From: a virus
Taxonomy: Duplodnaviria > Caudoviricetes
Length of the DNA: 64,000 nt
IMG/VR virus record: IMGVR_UViG_3300033068_001924
Coordinates: 3,305-67,304 of that record
Reading direction: 5' to 3' (one strand)
The translations under genes were made by a program, and so were the position numbers. The notes beneath the pieces were generated by a model. That model was not told the origin of the DNA. It searched no databases and saw only the letters and a program-made list of their open reading frames with translations. Positions 7,223 to 29,806 of this stretch are shown here, in pieces. Each line of letters opens with the position of its first letter. Within the stretch, counting starts at the first letter, position 1.

Positions 7223-8436
7223 TGGCGAGCGACCTTTCCGGCTTCTTGTTTCAGGGCACGCCGCCGCCCAACGTCAATTCGACCGGCCAGACCACGACGT
7301 CGGTGCCGAAATATATTCAGGACTACAACAAGCGCCTGCTGTCACAGGCGACCGCCGTCGGTAACCAGAAATACACCACCTATGGCGGCCAGCGCTTGGC
7401 CGATGTCGATCCGGCTCTGACCCAGAGCTGGCAGACCGCGATGGGCGCCTCGGGTTCGTACAAGCCGGCCTTCGGGCAGGCGACCGGGCAGCTCGACAAG
7501 GCGGCCGGCGGCGACGCTTCCGGTGCGGCGGCGCCCTACCTTTCGACGGCTGCCGGGATGTCGGCCACCGGCGCCGCCGCACCGGCGCTCAACATGGCGA
7601 TGGGGTCGACGGCCGACAGTGTCGGGCAGTATATGTCGCCCTACATCAGCAATGTCATCGACACCATCCAGCAGCGCGGCACGCAGAACCTGCAGGACAA
7701 TCTGCTGCCGGCGATGGGCGATGATTTCATCCGCAGCGGGCAGCTCAATTCGACGCGCCATCAGGCTGCCGCCGGCAAGGCGATGGCCGACACCCAGCGC
7801 GCCGTCACCGACGCCACCTCGCAGGCGCTCAACACCGGCTACACCACGGCGCTGGGGGCGGCTCAGAACGATCTCTCGCGTTACGCCAGCGTCGGCCAGA
7901 CGCAGGGCAACCTGACCAATGCCGAACAGCAGAATCAGGCCAATATCGGTCAGATGGCCGGCAACTTCAATTCGGTCGATACCCGCAACGCGCTCGATAC
8001 CGCGAGCGGCTATCTCACCGCCGGCAAGTCGACGCAGGCGGCTGGGTTGACCGAGGCGGCGGCGCAGGAGGCGGTCGGGCGCGGCCAGATGGGCGAGGAG
8101 CAGAAGAACCTCGATCTCGCCTATGGCGATTTCACCGACCAGCGCGATTACGACCGCAACCAGACCGCATGGCAGGCCGATCTGCTCAAGGGCCAGCCGT
8201 CGATGGGCGGCACCGTCTATACTTCGGAGAACAAGCCGCTTCCGGGGGCGCAGTATGGGTCGAGCGGGCTATCGCAGATCGCCGGTGCAGCGACCGGCGC
8301 GGCGGCGCTCAATGACCTGATCAAGAAGGCCAAGGGCGGCTATATCTCGACGCCCCGGCGCGGTTATGAAAGCAGCGGCCAGCGCCCACCACCGATACGG
8401 GTGCCTCGGCGCCAGAGTCAGAGGGAATACGCATAA
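7222..8436 (+). CDS. Internal virion/ejection protein 2
   Basis: Gln/Ala/Thr-rich pilot-protein-like composition; overlaps neighbours by 1 nt. Confidence 0.65.
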   Translation: MASDLSGFLFQGTPPPNVNSTGQTTTSVPKYIQDYNKRLLSQATAVGNQKYTTYGGQRLADVDPALTQSWQTAMGASGSYKPAFGQATGQLDKAAGGDASGAAAPYLSTAAGMSATGAAAPALNMAMGSTADSVGQYMSPYISNVIDTIQQRGTQNLQDNLLPAMGDDFIRSGQLNSTRHQAAAGKAMADTQRAVTDATSQALNTGYTTALGAAQNDLSRYASVGQTQGNLTNAEQQNQANIGQMAGNFNSVDTRNALDTASGYLTAGKSTQAAGLTEAAAQEAVGRGQMGEEQKNLDLAYGDFTDQRDYDRNQTAWQADLLKGQPSMGGTVYTSENKPLPGAQYGSSGLSQIAGAATGAAALNDLIKKAKGGYISTPRRGYESSGQRPPPIRVPRRQSQREYA

Positions 8437-25996: not shown

Positions 25997-26296
25997 ATGG
26001 CCAAGTCAGCACCGGCTGCCAACCGCGAGGTCGACAGCAGCGACAACGAGTATCAGACCGAGTCCGTCGCCGGCGACCAGCTTAAAGCCTTCATCGAGCG
26101 CATCGAGCGACTGGAGGAGGAGAAGGCCGGCATCGCGGGCGACATCCGCGACGTCTACGGTGAAGCCAAAGGCAATGGCTTTGATGCCAAGGTGATCCGC
26201 AAGATCATCGGCATCCGCAAACGCGATTATGCCGAGCGGCAGGAAGAAGAAGCGATCCTCGAATTGTATATGCAGGCGCTGGGGATGGTAAGGTGA
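25997..26296 (+). CDS. gapR: GapR (DUF2312) nucleoid-associated protein homologue
   Basis: [37 protein letters not shown]...E.EAIL.LY..ALGM. Confidence 0.92.
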
Positions 26297-26865
26297 CGAT
26301 GACTAGGTATTTTTTTTCAAAAGAGAATCCGTTAACCATCATTGTCCACGGCACGGCGCCAGACAATCGGATCGGCGTGGAGTTCCATGAAGGGCGGGTA
26401 GATCAACTTGATCGTATCTGCCTCGACAGGGCTCAGGCAAATCTCGTCCAGCACTTTCTTAAGGCCGCTATTAGCAAGGTTGATGAACAGGAGGACGGGG
26501 TGGTCGATCAGGGGATGGATTTTTCGCAGGCGCTCGTCGCCATGAAGCGCGGCCACAAGGTCTCCCGCGCCGGTTGGAATGGCAAGGGCATGTGGATATG
26601 CCTCGGTAAGAGGCAGTGGCTGGAGCCGGAGGCGTTCTGGAATAAGCACACCCGCAAGTTTGCCGAAGATCAAGTCGCTGTCTGCGAGGCCAGAACCGGA
26701 CTCAAGCGCCACACCTCATCGGCTGATTTCAATGCACTCAAGCATTGCAAGACTGAGGTGCTGCCGTATTTCATCATGAAAACCGCCGACGACAAGATTT
26801 TGATGGGCTGGCTCGCCAGCCAGACCGATCTTCTCGCCGACGACTGGGGGATTGTGGAGGATTGA
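26293..26865 (+). CDS. DUF2829 / Tad2-like protein with N-terminal extension
   Basis: From 26515: [21 protein letters not shown]...PY..MKT.D....[14 protein letters not shown]. Confidence 0.8.
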
Positions 26866-27775
26866 TGGAATCTCGTGTTGGGGAACTGGCCCTCGGGCAA
26901 GAAAACGAATGAGGTGGCGATCCCAACCAGCCACTTCCTCCACCCGGGGGTCGATGGAAGATCAACCGCGCATGTCTTGGAGGCCCGGGCAGCGGTGACA
27001 GATCGGAGAGACGATCACCTGTTTTGCCCGAATGGGCATCCGAGAAGGTGGGCGGGGTTGCCGGGGCCTGCAGCGCCTTTATCACGCGGAGAGAACCGGA
27101 CGAGAACCGAGATCGCCACCAGCGGTGACAGCCGGAGAGACGGCAACAAAATTCAGTTCGGCCGGGTGTCTTACTCTGACGCGATCCGGTTGGGCGTCGA
27201 TCGGGGGTCTCCTACCGTAAGGGTGGAGGCGCTGTGCGAGACGGGCGGTGATAGCACCCGGCCTCCGGTCACGAGTTTCCAACCTGTGCAAAAACCGCAC
27301 GAGTTGGTCCGAAGAGTGGAGAGCGACCACTCCTTCCCGGTTCGGGAATAGCACGCTCGCGAACGACCCTCGAAAGGGGGCCTCGCCTTCACTGGAATCG
27401 CCATGGCGGCCGGTTGGGATGGGGGTATCAGGCCAACAGCGCATGACGGCAGTCGAGAGCGGGTCGGGCGGATGCGGAGCCGGCTAGACCCTCGCCGGCA
27501 ACAAATTTCCCCAGTGATGGGGAGAAGAGGCAGGCCGGTTCGATCCCGGCTCGTTGGCCGAGGTCTGGTGAGAGAGACGGTTCGAGTCCGTCACAGGCGA
27601 GCCCCACGGGAGGGGTGGCCGAAGGGAGTGCCCCACCGGGGATGGGGTGGCTGTCGGGGAAAGGGGACGGGGCGCGCGACCCGCCTCTTTCCCCGGAGAA
27701 TTCGGCACTGTTGTGTGAGCTGGCAGTGTCAATGAGAGGCCTCGGGGCAGTTCACCTTCCCCGGGCCTTTTCTTT
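26866..27775 (+). ncRNA. Candidate large structured non-coding RNA (~900 nt)
   Basis: No credible CDS; many hairpins, GNRA loops, a covarying internal repeat, two T-arm motifs and a 3' terminator. Confidence 0.6.
27737..27775 (+). terminator. Rho-independent terminator
   Basis: AGGCC(T)CGGGG...CCCCGGGCCT followed by TTTCTTT. Confidence 0.65.
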
Positions 27776-27815
27776 GGCCAAGGCTGTTGACGGTCTCGCA
27801 AATCTGTGGCGATAT
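27776..27815 (+). promoter_or_regulatory. Promoter cassette variant with operator half-site
   Basis: GGCCAAGGCTG-TTGACG(27787); TGTGGC at 27805 without a second arm. Confidence 0.5.
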
Positions 27816-27838
27816 GGTCGATGAGAGGGGTCTCATCC

Positions 27839-27988
27839 ATGTACGAATGCCCAGCCATGACGTGGCGCAGGTTCTTGCTGATAACTCTGCCGATTGTCGG
27901 TCTGGCAGTGACGCTCGGCTTCGGCCCGGCTAGATTGTATCTCTCGGGGTTGATGATCTGGCTGATCCTCAGCGGTCGGGGTATCTGA
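27839..27988 (+). CDS. Small membrane protein
   Basis: GAGAGGGG RBS, ATG 27839, two hydrophobic stretches. Confidence 0.5.
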   Translation: MYECPAMTWRRFLLITLPIVGLAVTLGFGPARLYLSGLMIWLILSGRGI

Positions 27989-27989
27989 C

Positions 27990-28355
27990 ATGCTGGGGGC
28001 CGTCATGTCGAAAAAGCCACACAACGACACGCCGATCGAGGAATGCCTGCACTGCGCCCTGCTCGCCACGATCGTGCGCTGGCGTGATGCTCACGGTGCC
28101 CGCGACGGAATTACCGGCGAGCTGGCCTATGATCCGGCTCAGGAGACGCTTGCGCTGGCGCACTGTCTCGGCGACCTCATCGCTGGATCGACATTTGATT
28201 CCGACCCGATGGAGACACTGGAACGGACCACTGATCTGTTCGGCATAATCGCGACCTTCATCGCGCTCGAATATGACCGTATGGCTGGTTACAGCGGCGA
28301 ACCGGCCGAGACCGACCTGCGTCTGATGAAGGTCGCCAGTCATGCCAAGAACTGA
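27990..28355 (+). CDS. Hypothetical protein
   Basis: In the operon; true start may be 28005. Confidence 0.55.
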   Translation: MLGAVMSKKPHNDTPIEECLHCALLATIVRWRDAHGARDGITGELAYDPAQETLALAHCLGDLIAGSTFDSDPMETLERTTDLFGIIATFIALEYDRMAGYSGEPAETDLRLMKVASHAKN

Positions 28356-28821
28356 TCTGACCTTCATCGGCTTCGAGCGGCCGGAGCGGGGCGATAACAT
28401 CGTCGCCTATCGCGGTAACATGGCGTTGGGCCACATCTCCTGTCTGACCTTGGACGGCAGCTTCTCGATCTCGCTGGTGCTTGGTCAGGCCATTATCGGC
28501 AAGCACGGCATTGACACGCTGGATGAGGCCAAGGACGAGTTTGTGGCGCTGCTGGAGGACCTGCTGCAGCAGAACGGCCTGATGTTCGATCCGGCCTTTA
28601 CGCCGCCGCCGGCGCCCGATTACGCCGAGCGCATCATTTCCGAGGCCAAGATTTTCACCAAGGCCAAGGAGGTGCTCGACCACATGCAGCACCCGATGAC
28701 CCAGCGCTACCTGCGCGAGATGTTGCCCGGCACCCGGGATCGCGTGCGCAAGGTCGTCAACCGCCACTATGCCGCCCTGCGCGACAAGGAACAGGCTGAG
28801 GAGGAAGCCCATCATGGATGA
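28342..28821 (+). CDS. Hypothetical protein
   Basis: Overlaps both neighbours. Confidence 0.6.
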   Translation: MPRTDLTFIGFERPERGDNIVAYRGNMALGHISCLTLDGSFSISLVLGQAIIGKHGIDTLDEAKDEFVALLEDLLQQNGLMFDPAFTPPPAPDYAERIISEAKIFTKAKEVLDHMQHPMTQRYLREMLPGTRDRVRKVVNRHYAALRDKEQAEEEAHHG

Positions 28822-29806
28822 CGATATCAGAGTTGCCTACGCCGTCGCGCACACCTCGGAGGGCGGTGAGCATATCGCTTCGATCCGCGATATCCCGGGG
28901 GTCGAGGGGCGTGGTGCCTCTCTGGAAGAGGCGCTCGAAGCGTTGTCGCCGAAGCTCGCCGAATTCCTGTTTCAGCGCGTTCATGCCAACGAGCCCCTCC
29001 CGGTAGCAACGCCGACGCAGGACGGTGAGATGATGGCGGCGATCTCTATCGCGCGCGGCGACCCGGAGAGCGACGAGCATGAGGTCACCTCTAAGGTCAC
29101 TATGACCGACGGCTTCCCCCTCCCCAGCGAGGTTTTCAAGCCATCTGGCCACACCAGTGTCATGAACAACCGCCACGACCGCAACGATGTGGTGCAGGAT
29201 TTCCCGACCCCGCCATGGGGGACGCGGGCGCTGGCCGAGCACCTCAAGCGCCTCGGCGTCTATTTCGGCACGGTGCTTGAACCGGCGGCCGGGCGCGGCC
29301 TGATGTCGGGGGTGTTGGGGGCGTACTTCCAGCGCGTCCTGACGGCCGATGCCTACGATTACGGCCTGACCGGCTGTAAGCTCGCCAGCTACGTCCAGCC
29401 GCCCGAAGAATGGGCGCCAGACAGCGTCGACTGGATGATCACCAACCCGCCCTTCGCGCTGATGGAGGCCTTCCTTGCCCGGGCGCTGGTCGAGGCCCGC
29501 TTCGGCGTCGCCATGCTGACCCGGCTGCCATGGCTCGACACGCAAGGTCGTTACGAGCGCATTTTCAGCATCAACCCGCCGACACAGGTTTTGATCTTCT
29601 CGGAGCGGCTGGCGATGTACGAGGGCCGATGGGTGCCGGGGGGCTCGACGGCCACCGGCTATTGTTGGGTGCTGTGGATCAAGGGGCGCGATCCGCTGCC
29701 GCTGGCGTGGGTACCGGTGGGTAGTCGCGACCGTCTGTCCTTCCCGGCCGACCTGATCCACTACGCCCACGCCATCAAGGATAATCCCATCGAGGACAAG
29801 CCATGA
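28814..29806 (+). CDS. HicB-like domain fused to an amino (N6A/N4C) DNA methyltransferase
   Basis: N-terminal A.I.DIPGV...G.SLEEALE.L...L...LP; then DFPTPPW, LEPAAG.G (motif I), ITNPPF (motif IV). Confidence 0.8.
   Translation: MDDDIRVAYAVAHTSEGGEHIASIRDIPGVEGRGASLEEALEALSPKLAEFLFQRVHANEPLPVATPTQDGEMMAAISIARGDPESDEHEVTSKVTMTDGFPLPSEVFKPSGHTSVMNNRHDRNDVVQDFPTPPWGTRALAEHLKRLGVYFGTVLEPAAGRGLMSGVLGAYFQRVLTADAYDYGLTGCKLASYVQPPEEWAPDSVDWMITNPPFALMEAFLARALVEARFGVAMLTRLPWLDTQGRYERIFSINPPTQVLIFSERLAMYEGRWVPGGSTATGYCWVLWIKGRDPLPLAWVPVGSRDRLSFPADLIHYAHAIKDNPIEDKP

Follow-up and report, generated by a model that had tools for sequence, protein, structure and literature searches.

A gene-free interval beside a Tad2-like gene in a phage contig carries modules of two uncatalogued structured RNA families

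Positions 26866-27775 of a 64-kb window, the whole stretch of DNA that was analysed and itself part of a 67-kb IMG/VR virus contig, form a genuine non-coding RNA region of ~900 nt in which two uncatalogued phage RNA families occur side by side. One of these, motif 2, is a small element characterised by a UGACAG linker and a GAGAGA loop, and is present in two tandem copies; the second, motif 1, is a tRNA-like module of ~130-150 nt that carries two T-arms. We find a modular 'RNA island' more likely than a single ~900-nt RNA: conservation resides in short units, two of ~80 nt and one of at least 130 nt, that recur independently and recombine, while outside of these units relatives share almost nothing. 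The explanation that we prefer, although our confidence in it is evenly balanced, is that this non-coding island ends a GapR-Tad2 gene block and is composed of independently folding modules from two related families, with tRNA-operon-like handling of the transcript. It is built on observations, namely the non-coding status of the interval, the conservation of the modules and their covarying helices, their tRNA neighbourhood and the gene-free gaps that they occupy in relatives.

No credible coding sequence was found within 26866-27775 by ORF, family, homologue and codon-position checks. The longest open frames encode 158 aa (26875-27351, + strand) and 110 aa (27403-27735, + strand), with three more on the - strand, and none of the five matched any Pfam or PHROG family. 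Searches with ORF158 and ORF110 returned zero tblastn matches against 50,697 phage records, and a search of 5.8 billion protein clusters, within the range of 86-277 residues, brought up no relative of ORF158. The GC spread between codon positions is 0.04-0.22 over 26900-27725, compared with mostly 0.24-0.58 in the flanking genes. Frame-breaking changes among the RNA homologues lend further support to the non-coding reading: the spacing of the T-arms varies from 44 to 50 nt across motif 1 homologues and the offsets of the first stem (P1) vary by 1 nt among motif 2 homologues, in both cases through indels that are not multiples of three. We regard it as extremely improbable that one of the overlapping ORFs (103-158 aa) is an unrecognised protein-coding gene. 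The 158- and 110-aa frames are indeed open on the + strand, and GC3 weakly exceeds GC2 in the ORF158 frame over 26900-27200, but at 62-68% G+C chance alone is expected to leave long frames open, and both the frame-breaking indels and the lack of any family, tblastn or protein-cluster match weigh against a gene.

The interval comes after the replication genes, and the large terminase gene follows ~12 kb further on. It directly follows a Tad2-like gene (26293-26865, + strand; PF11195, 83.9 bits), which is in turn directly preceded by a GapR-like gene (25997-26296; PF10073, 115.8 bits). GapR is typical of alphaproteobacteria, and the gene is consistent with the alphaproteobacterial host that an earlier note on this DNA had proposed; here the GapR-like DNA-binding protein is encoded by the phage itself, beside the island. 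The Tad2-like stop codon lies 75 nt from the first RNA module, and a terminator scan, which accepts loops of 3-8 nt only, found no terminator between the two. Given this distance and the lack of an intervening terminator, the island is probably co-transcribed with the Tad2-like gene as a 3' extension of its transcript. Adjacency is the only link that was found between this anti-defence gene and the RNA. The island transcript likely ends at an intrinsic terminator at 27738-27775 (+ strand), which was read by eye and missed by the scan owing to its 11-nt loop; it comprises a G+C-rich 9-bp stem with one bulge, followed by a T-run. Terminators also directly follow motif 1 in three relatives (loci L082, L087 and L089). 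On the 3' side of the interval is a small membrane-protein ORF and then an odd antitoxin-methylase fusion, in which a HicB/UPF0150-like N terminus and a DNA methyltransferase are combined in one 345-aa ORF (28769-29806; phrog_799, 1e-43; phrog_497, 2e-5).

Folding of the + strand of the interval yields -442 kcal/mol and z = -5.0, compared with z = -2.0 for the - strand and z = -1.8 and -2.8 for two coding stretches of 910 nt, taken from this window as controls, each z-score being estimated from only 20 shuffles. The earlier note, which had described a gene-free, densely structured + strand region between the Tad2-like gene and a terminator, with two T-arms and internal repeats, was accurate in each of these respects, and the stems that it listed are all present at the positions given. 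One is a hairpin in the spacer that separates the motif 2 copies (27015-27050, + strand), with an outer 5-bp stem, an inner 4-bp stem and a 4-nt loop; by eye, a similar hairpin follows motif 2 at locus L121. Two more, at 27279-27307 and 27367-27380, are local hairpins of the middle segment (27151-27507, + strand), which by its sequence also holds hairpins at 27313-27331 and 27333-27348 and for which no homologue was found with the motif models (R1 for motif 2, R2 for motif 1) or by blastn against phages. The next, H0 (27508-27523, + strand), has a GNRA loop and precedes motif 1; in most motif 1 members inspected by eye, a hairpin of differing sequence occupies the same site in the alignment. 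Two others (27657-27694 and 27705-27730, + strand) are lineage-specific hairpins between motif 1 and the terminator, identified from the sequence and the MFE fold. The internal repeats lie at 26990, 27120 and 27245, the first two of which are the motif 2 core. The repeat at 27245 was considered as a third copy and rejected, as R1 finds no third copy.

The core of motif 2 consists of a variable first stem domain, the UGACAG linker, a 5-bp stem (P3) that is opened by the last G of the linker and closed by a GAGAGA loop, and a terminal CA. Copy A spans 26940-27021 on the + strand (R1, 43.2 bits, E 1e-8) and contains P1 (26943-26948 with 26984-26989), P2 (26958-26961 with 26975-26978), the linker (26996-27001) and P3 (27001-27005 with 27012-27016, around the loop at 27006-27011); all three stems covary in a set of 24 sequences. 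In one subclass that includes copy A, an H-type pseudoknot is predicted from complementarity between the conserved inner-hairpin loop (26964-26969) and the five bases before the linker (26992-26996), a pairing whose 3' strand is fixed by the collecting pattern; many other members have only a plain first hairpin. Copy B is more divergent (27067-27150, + strand; R1, 26.8 bits, E about 1e-4), and its recognisable parts are the 3' strand (27122-27126), the linker (27126-27131) and P3 (27131-27134 with 27141-27144), whereas its local P1 is poor. A perfect 10-nt complement between 26913-26922 and 27111-27120 would enclose copy A, and this helix could supply, as a long-range P1, the first stem that copy B is missing.

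Both families were gathered with exact patterns, so that their invariant blocks are partly invariant by construction, and the pair counts for each were made on alignments fitted to the models R1 and R2 themselves. Counted in this way over 24 sequences, the P1, P2 and P3 pairs of motif 2 are formed in 91.7% of alignment cells, compared with 65.6% after shuffling and 24-42% with slid partners, and 72 cells are altered on both sides against 23 in the shuffles. The covariation of P3 was repeated in 51 further sequences. A 20-base motif 2 pattern occurs at 33 viral loci where ~0.1 would be expected by chance, according to a rough estimate from collection size, and the exact 16-base core is found in at least 120 viral contigs of IMG/VR.

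Elsewhere, motif 2 resides in short spacers and ends ~13-27 nt before the start codons that were inspected. The genes that follow are mutually unrelated and encode an HNH endonuclease, a head morphogenesis protein, a GH46 hydrolase, a PDDEXK nuclease or AlpA with an integrase; in a further context, a short ORF is followed by a large polymerase-like ORF, a label assigned without a family-library search. Tandem pairs of motif 2, 100-300 nt apart, recur at L114, L182 and L219 and in Ralstonia phage GP4 and Planktothrix phage Pag-Yong1. In the two cultured phages these pairs (L259 1370-1527 for GP4 and L260 1295-1527 for Pag-Yong1) end 22-24 nt before small HNH genes, and in GP4, where the first copy has a different loop, the pair and the HNH gene adjoin the terminase genes. 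At L117, L118 and L120, motif 2 lies among or beside tRNA genes on the same strand, within ~30-300 nt.

Such positions could also be explained if both motifs were purely cis-regulatory leader or UTR elements that leave no stable product, whether as a riboswitch-like or protein-binding leader, as antitermination in the style of put RNA, or as elements of translation or mRNA stability. We consider this possible, though on the unlikely side. In many phages the start codons that closely follow motif 2 are accompanied by ribosome sites, the order in the L118 group is motif 2, terminator and gene, and the tandem arrangement of motif 2 is one that is typical of some riboswitches. Motif 1 can likewise be followed by terminase genes, after a terminator at L089 and together with an HNH gene at L112. 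In the present interval, however, no ORF follows either copy of motif 2, and more than 650 nt pass before the next plausible start; the unrelated downstream genes argue against a metabolite switch, and neither T-arm mimicry nor a tRNA neighbourhood would be expected of a leader. Known riboswitch classes were rejected separately, on the absence of any Rfam match and on the same diversity of downstream genes.

Motif 1 is detected at 27526-27654 on the + strand (R2, 103.5 bits, E 2.5e-25) and probably starts at about 27508, at H0. T-arm 1 (27534-27550), with a T-loop that is almost fixed in sequence across the family, is directly adjoined by an invariant D-arm-like hairpin (27550-27562), which is followed by a conserved linker (27565-27571) and T-arm 2 (27576-27592). 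Downstream of these lie hairpin Hx (27596-27620), which is often capped by a tetraloop in the family, hairpin Hy (27630-27648), with 6 bp and a loop that usually holds GG, and a 3' tetramer, GGCC (27649-27652), all on the + strand. The tetramer is able to pair with the D-like loop (27556-27559), and this pairing is possible in 91% of cells; covariation was never seen. As a covariation-supported pseudoknot it was therefore rejected and stands as compatible only, the apparent compensatory change in Ruegeria phage RpAliso hinging on a 1-nt alignment shift.

The first relative of motif 1 came from a stretch of 72 nt in Pseudomonas phage Touem01, the sole blastn match of the interval among deposited phages, in which both T-arms show compensatory changes around an identical 13-nt block. 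The match sits within a 944-nt unannotated gap, which, when used as a query, found no relative among deposited phages. The final set comprises 26 members: pattern scans of viral contigs, metagenomes and genomes enlarged it to 25 distinct sequences, and a further blastn of deposited phages supplied the 26th; carriers include a Variovorax soli prophage in addition to Touem01 and RpAliso. Three of four genome matches to the pattern, in Rothia, a gammaproteobacterial MAG and a Myxococcales MAG, lack the T-arms and were discarded as chance. Over 25 sequences, the motif 1 pairs are formed in 95.1% of cells, compared with 69.7% in shuffled and 34-54% in slid alignments, 119 cells are altered on both sides against 33 in the shuffles, and 17 of the 22 pairs change on both sides. 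The covariation is carried by the T-arm, Hx and Hy hairpins, while the D-like hairpin is invariant. The earlier note had looked to homologues and covariation as a check on its proposal of a structured RNA, and this check has come out in its favour for the stems of both motifs.

The surroundings of motif 1 in its relatives are recurrent. A tRNA gene lies on the same strand within ~30-300 nt at five loci (L088, L095, L104, L112 and L113). Of six motif 1 gaps that were measured, five are 0.8-0.95 kb in length; in Touem01, L089, L109 and L112 the motif occupies such ~0.8-0.95 kb gene-free gaps, at either gap end. The sixth, in RpAliso, is a 1.8-kb unannotated stretch that follows a cluster of seven tRNA genes. 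No k-mer upstream of motif 1 was shared at a consistent position among the relatives. Also in RpAliso, positions 1101-1269 of OR257569 (L261 921-1089) contain two T-arm hairpins and match the motif 1 model weakly (18.6 bits); L261 921-1042 is annotated in the record as a 122-nt 'tRNA-Gln(ttg)', and what the region holds is probably not an ordinary tRNA but a second module with twin T-arms.

A genuine tRNA was considered for the interval and rejected, with no Rfam tRNA match (29 bits are required) and tRNA-Sec as the best match within the clan, at 16.2 bits against a cut-off of 47. ARAGORN reports a 'tRNA-Ser(cga)' at 27508-27603, an artefact in which T-arm 1 is misread as the anticodon arm; in L095 the program labels this module tRNA-Leu, and in most relatives it makes no call. 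These tRNA-like T-arm sequences, the ARAGORN call and the tRNA genes near the motif in relatives would also be accounted for by decayed tRNA genes, or by a functionless attP remnant bearing the 3' part of a host tRNA or tmRNA gene. This appears to us very improbable, given that, in phages of Pseudomonas, Ruegeria, Variovorax and uncultured hosts alike, blocks with no likeness to tRNA do not vary and the stems compensate, that the Rfam tRNA model is silent and the clan score low, and that no integrase gene was found among the neighbouring ORFs scanned. A tmRNA was likewise rejected, as neither ARAGORN nor Rfam detected one, permuted and two-piece forms included. The upstream sequence, read by eye, showed no complement to the 3' flank of T-arm 2. 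The island does resemble tmRNA in that pseudoknots and a T-arm-bearing tRNA-like domain are placed in one transcript, but it differs in having no acceptor stem or CCA end and no tag reading frame that could be seen.

Among 50 sources searched with both models, this window is the only one in which full motif 1 and motif 2 occur together. Hybrids are found at L095, L096, L097 and L113, where the linker-plus-hairpin of motif 2, here with a GAAAGA loop, comes directly after the 3' tetramer of motif 1, and R1 detects them weakly in L095-L097. Both motifs follow a common syntax of a hairpin loop, a complementary downstream strand, a linker and a purine-loop hairpin, and this shared order suggests that the two are related, motif 1 being the more elaborate form.

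The earlier note had proposed a large RNA, either GOLLD-like or of a new class. The first part of this proposal has not survived comparison with Rfam 15, in which no family reached its gathering score in the 64-kb window and only chance-level matches appeared at E <= 10 in the 1.7 kb of 26500-28200; the GOLLD and ROOL models in particular gave no match in the window, in 26500-28200 at E <= 10 or in 24 related loci. The same library, run on 38 related loci, returned only ordinary tRNAs and chance-level matches, blastn and nhmmer comparison with 80 loci carrying Tad2 relatives revealed nothing that resembles the interval, and neither motif was seen to be described in the literature searched by topic and by sequence string. 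The second part stands as far as an uncatalogued, conserved and structured RNA is concerned, whereas a single RNA of ~900 nt is less likely than a chain of modules. A likeness to GOLLD and ROOL persists in that all are phage-borne, gene-free structured stretches of several hundred bases, often found beside tRNA genes. The difference is that conservation here is limited to modules of ~80-130 nt that recombine freely.

One ornate RNA of ~0.9 kb and of a new class, with the modules as domains that share one tertiary fold and act as a unit in the style of GOLLD or ROOL, is in our view unlikely, although several observations are in keeping with it. The interval has one terminator and none internally, its low z-score applies to the whole, the 10-nt complement joins 26913-26922 with 27111-27120 over a long range, the gaps that hold motif 1 in Touem01, L089, L109 and L112 are of similar size, and short blocks beyond the core are common to Touem01, L089 and L108. 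On the other hand, relatives share almost no sequence beyond the ~130-nt core, the end of the gap that carries motif 1, 3' or 5', differs from phage to phage, motif 2 stands alone in spacers of ~150-180 nt, and the GOLLD and ROOL models are unmatched.

Further known classes were compared. Self-cleaving ribozymes (hammerhead, twister, pistol, hatchet and HDV-like) were rejected with no Rfam match; on visual inspection, one base that is invariant in the hammerhead core is different in the linker, and an HDV-like double pseudoknot is ruled out by the plain first hairpin of many motif 2 members. The placement of a motif 2 pair directly upstream of a small HNH gene in the GP4 group and in Pag-Yong1 recalls the HEARO/IscB omega RNAs. 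This identity was also rejected, since the ORFs after the island contain no HNH domain and Rfam HEARO is unmatched; HNH genes follow motif 2 in these two cultured clades only, most other copies examined precede unrelated genes, and the HNH proteins concerned are of 162-201 aa, which we take to be too small for IscB.

Structured RNAs that are co-transcribed with tRNAs, or shaped like them, have precedents. The tRNA gene cluster of phage T4 yields the stable RNAs 'species 1 and 2', which are structured but are not tRNAs, and the aminoacylated 3' tRNA-like structures of plant viruses have upstream pseudoknot domains, as a pseudoknot may precede the tRNA mimic here. In both cases hosts and genome types differ from ours, and the likeness is drawn from descriptions and not from sequence.

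The nearest analogue in logic is YrlA, a tRNA-like Y RNA of bacteria and phages in which a T-arm mimic is followed by a D-arm mimic, the reverse of the order in tRNA, and which is not aminoacylatable (Chen et al. 2014, PMC4201824). The same arrangement is seen in motif 1, where T-arm 1 is directly followed by the D-like hairpin. Both RNAs occur in phages, both would escape aminoacylation and for both recognition by tRNA enzymes is expected. The analogy has limits, as a Ro60 neighbour is a defining feature of YrlA, and a search for Ro60/TROVE (PF05731), to which control genomes responded, was negative for the 67-kb record and for five related records; nor was there an Rfam match to YrlA at E <= 10. 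Furthermore, motif 1 has two T-arms and two extra covarying hairpins, and no acceptor-like hairpin is present between the T and D elements.

On the preferred explanation of a modular island, we propose with moderate confidence the following course of events. Read-through from the Tad2-like gene would generate an island transcript that ends at the 27738-27775 terminator and is handled as a tRNA-operon-like precursor. The tandem pseudoknot elements might serve as general cis-acting punctuation, a role suggested by position, and by the same token motif 2 may mark and protect the 5' side of the RNA downstream of it, which elsewhere is mRNA and here is tRNA-like. The twin-T-arm module would accumulate as a stable RNA that is not aminoacylatable but mimics the tRNA elbow. 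Its T-loop elbows could be recognised by host tRNA-elbow binders, such as processing or modifying enzymes or tRNA-directed nucleases, and the module may occupy or titrate these factors during infection. A more specific proposal is that the island is an anti-defence RNA to match Tad2, either as a T-arm decoy for elbow-recognising immune nucleases or through the tandem, highly conserved pseudoknots, whose pockets would bind small signalling nucleotides. We hold this to be improbable; if true, it would mean that a phage uses folded RNA, and not protein, as a sponge against bacterial immunity.

Two widespread and strongly covarying phage RNA structures are thus absent from Rfam 15. Their carriers include phages with tractable hosts, namely Touem01 of Pseudomonas syringae, RpAliso of Ruegeria pomeroyi, the Ralstonia phage GP4 group and the Planktothrix phages, and the presence of both motifs in cultured phages makes their function directly testable. 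The findings strengthen the case that reusable RNA modules, among them tRNA mimics that have neither anticodon nor acceptor end, make up the large gene-free gaps next to phage tRNA genes, and provide annotators with two models for stretches that are now left blank or mis-called as odd tRNAs.

Several smaller observations were made among the relatives. Blocks of 14-34 nt outside the motif 1 core are common to the gaps of Touem01, L089 and L108 (L082 at about 2020-2060 and 2130-2150, L089 at about 2210-2250 and 2330-2360, and L108 downstream of motif 1), a hint from shared sequence that there may be further reusable modules. A phage tRNA cluster at L120 6080-8090 has a weak copy of motif 2 between its tRNA genes (7934-7995), and ARAGORN reports in this cluster two tRNAs with anticodons of 2 or 4 bases. 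Finally, L121 5230-5460 (- strand) is a compact island in its own right, comprising a full motif 2, the hairpin that is similar to 27015-27050, a T-arm hairpin and a second UGACA-GAGAGA core.
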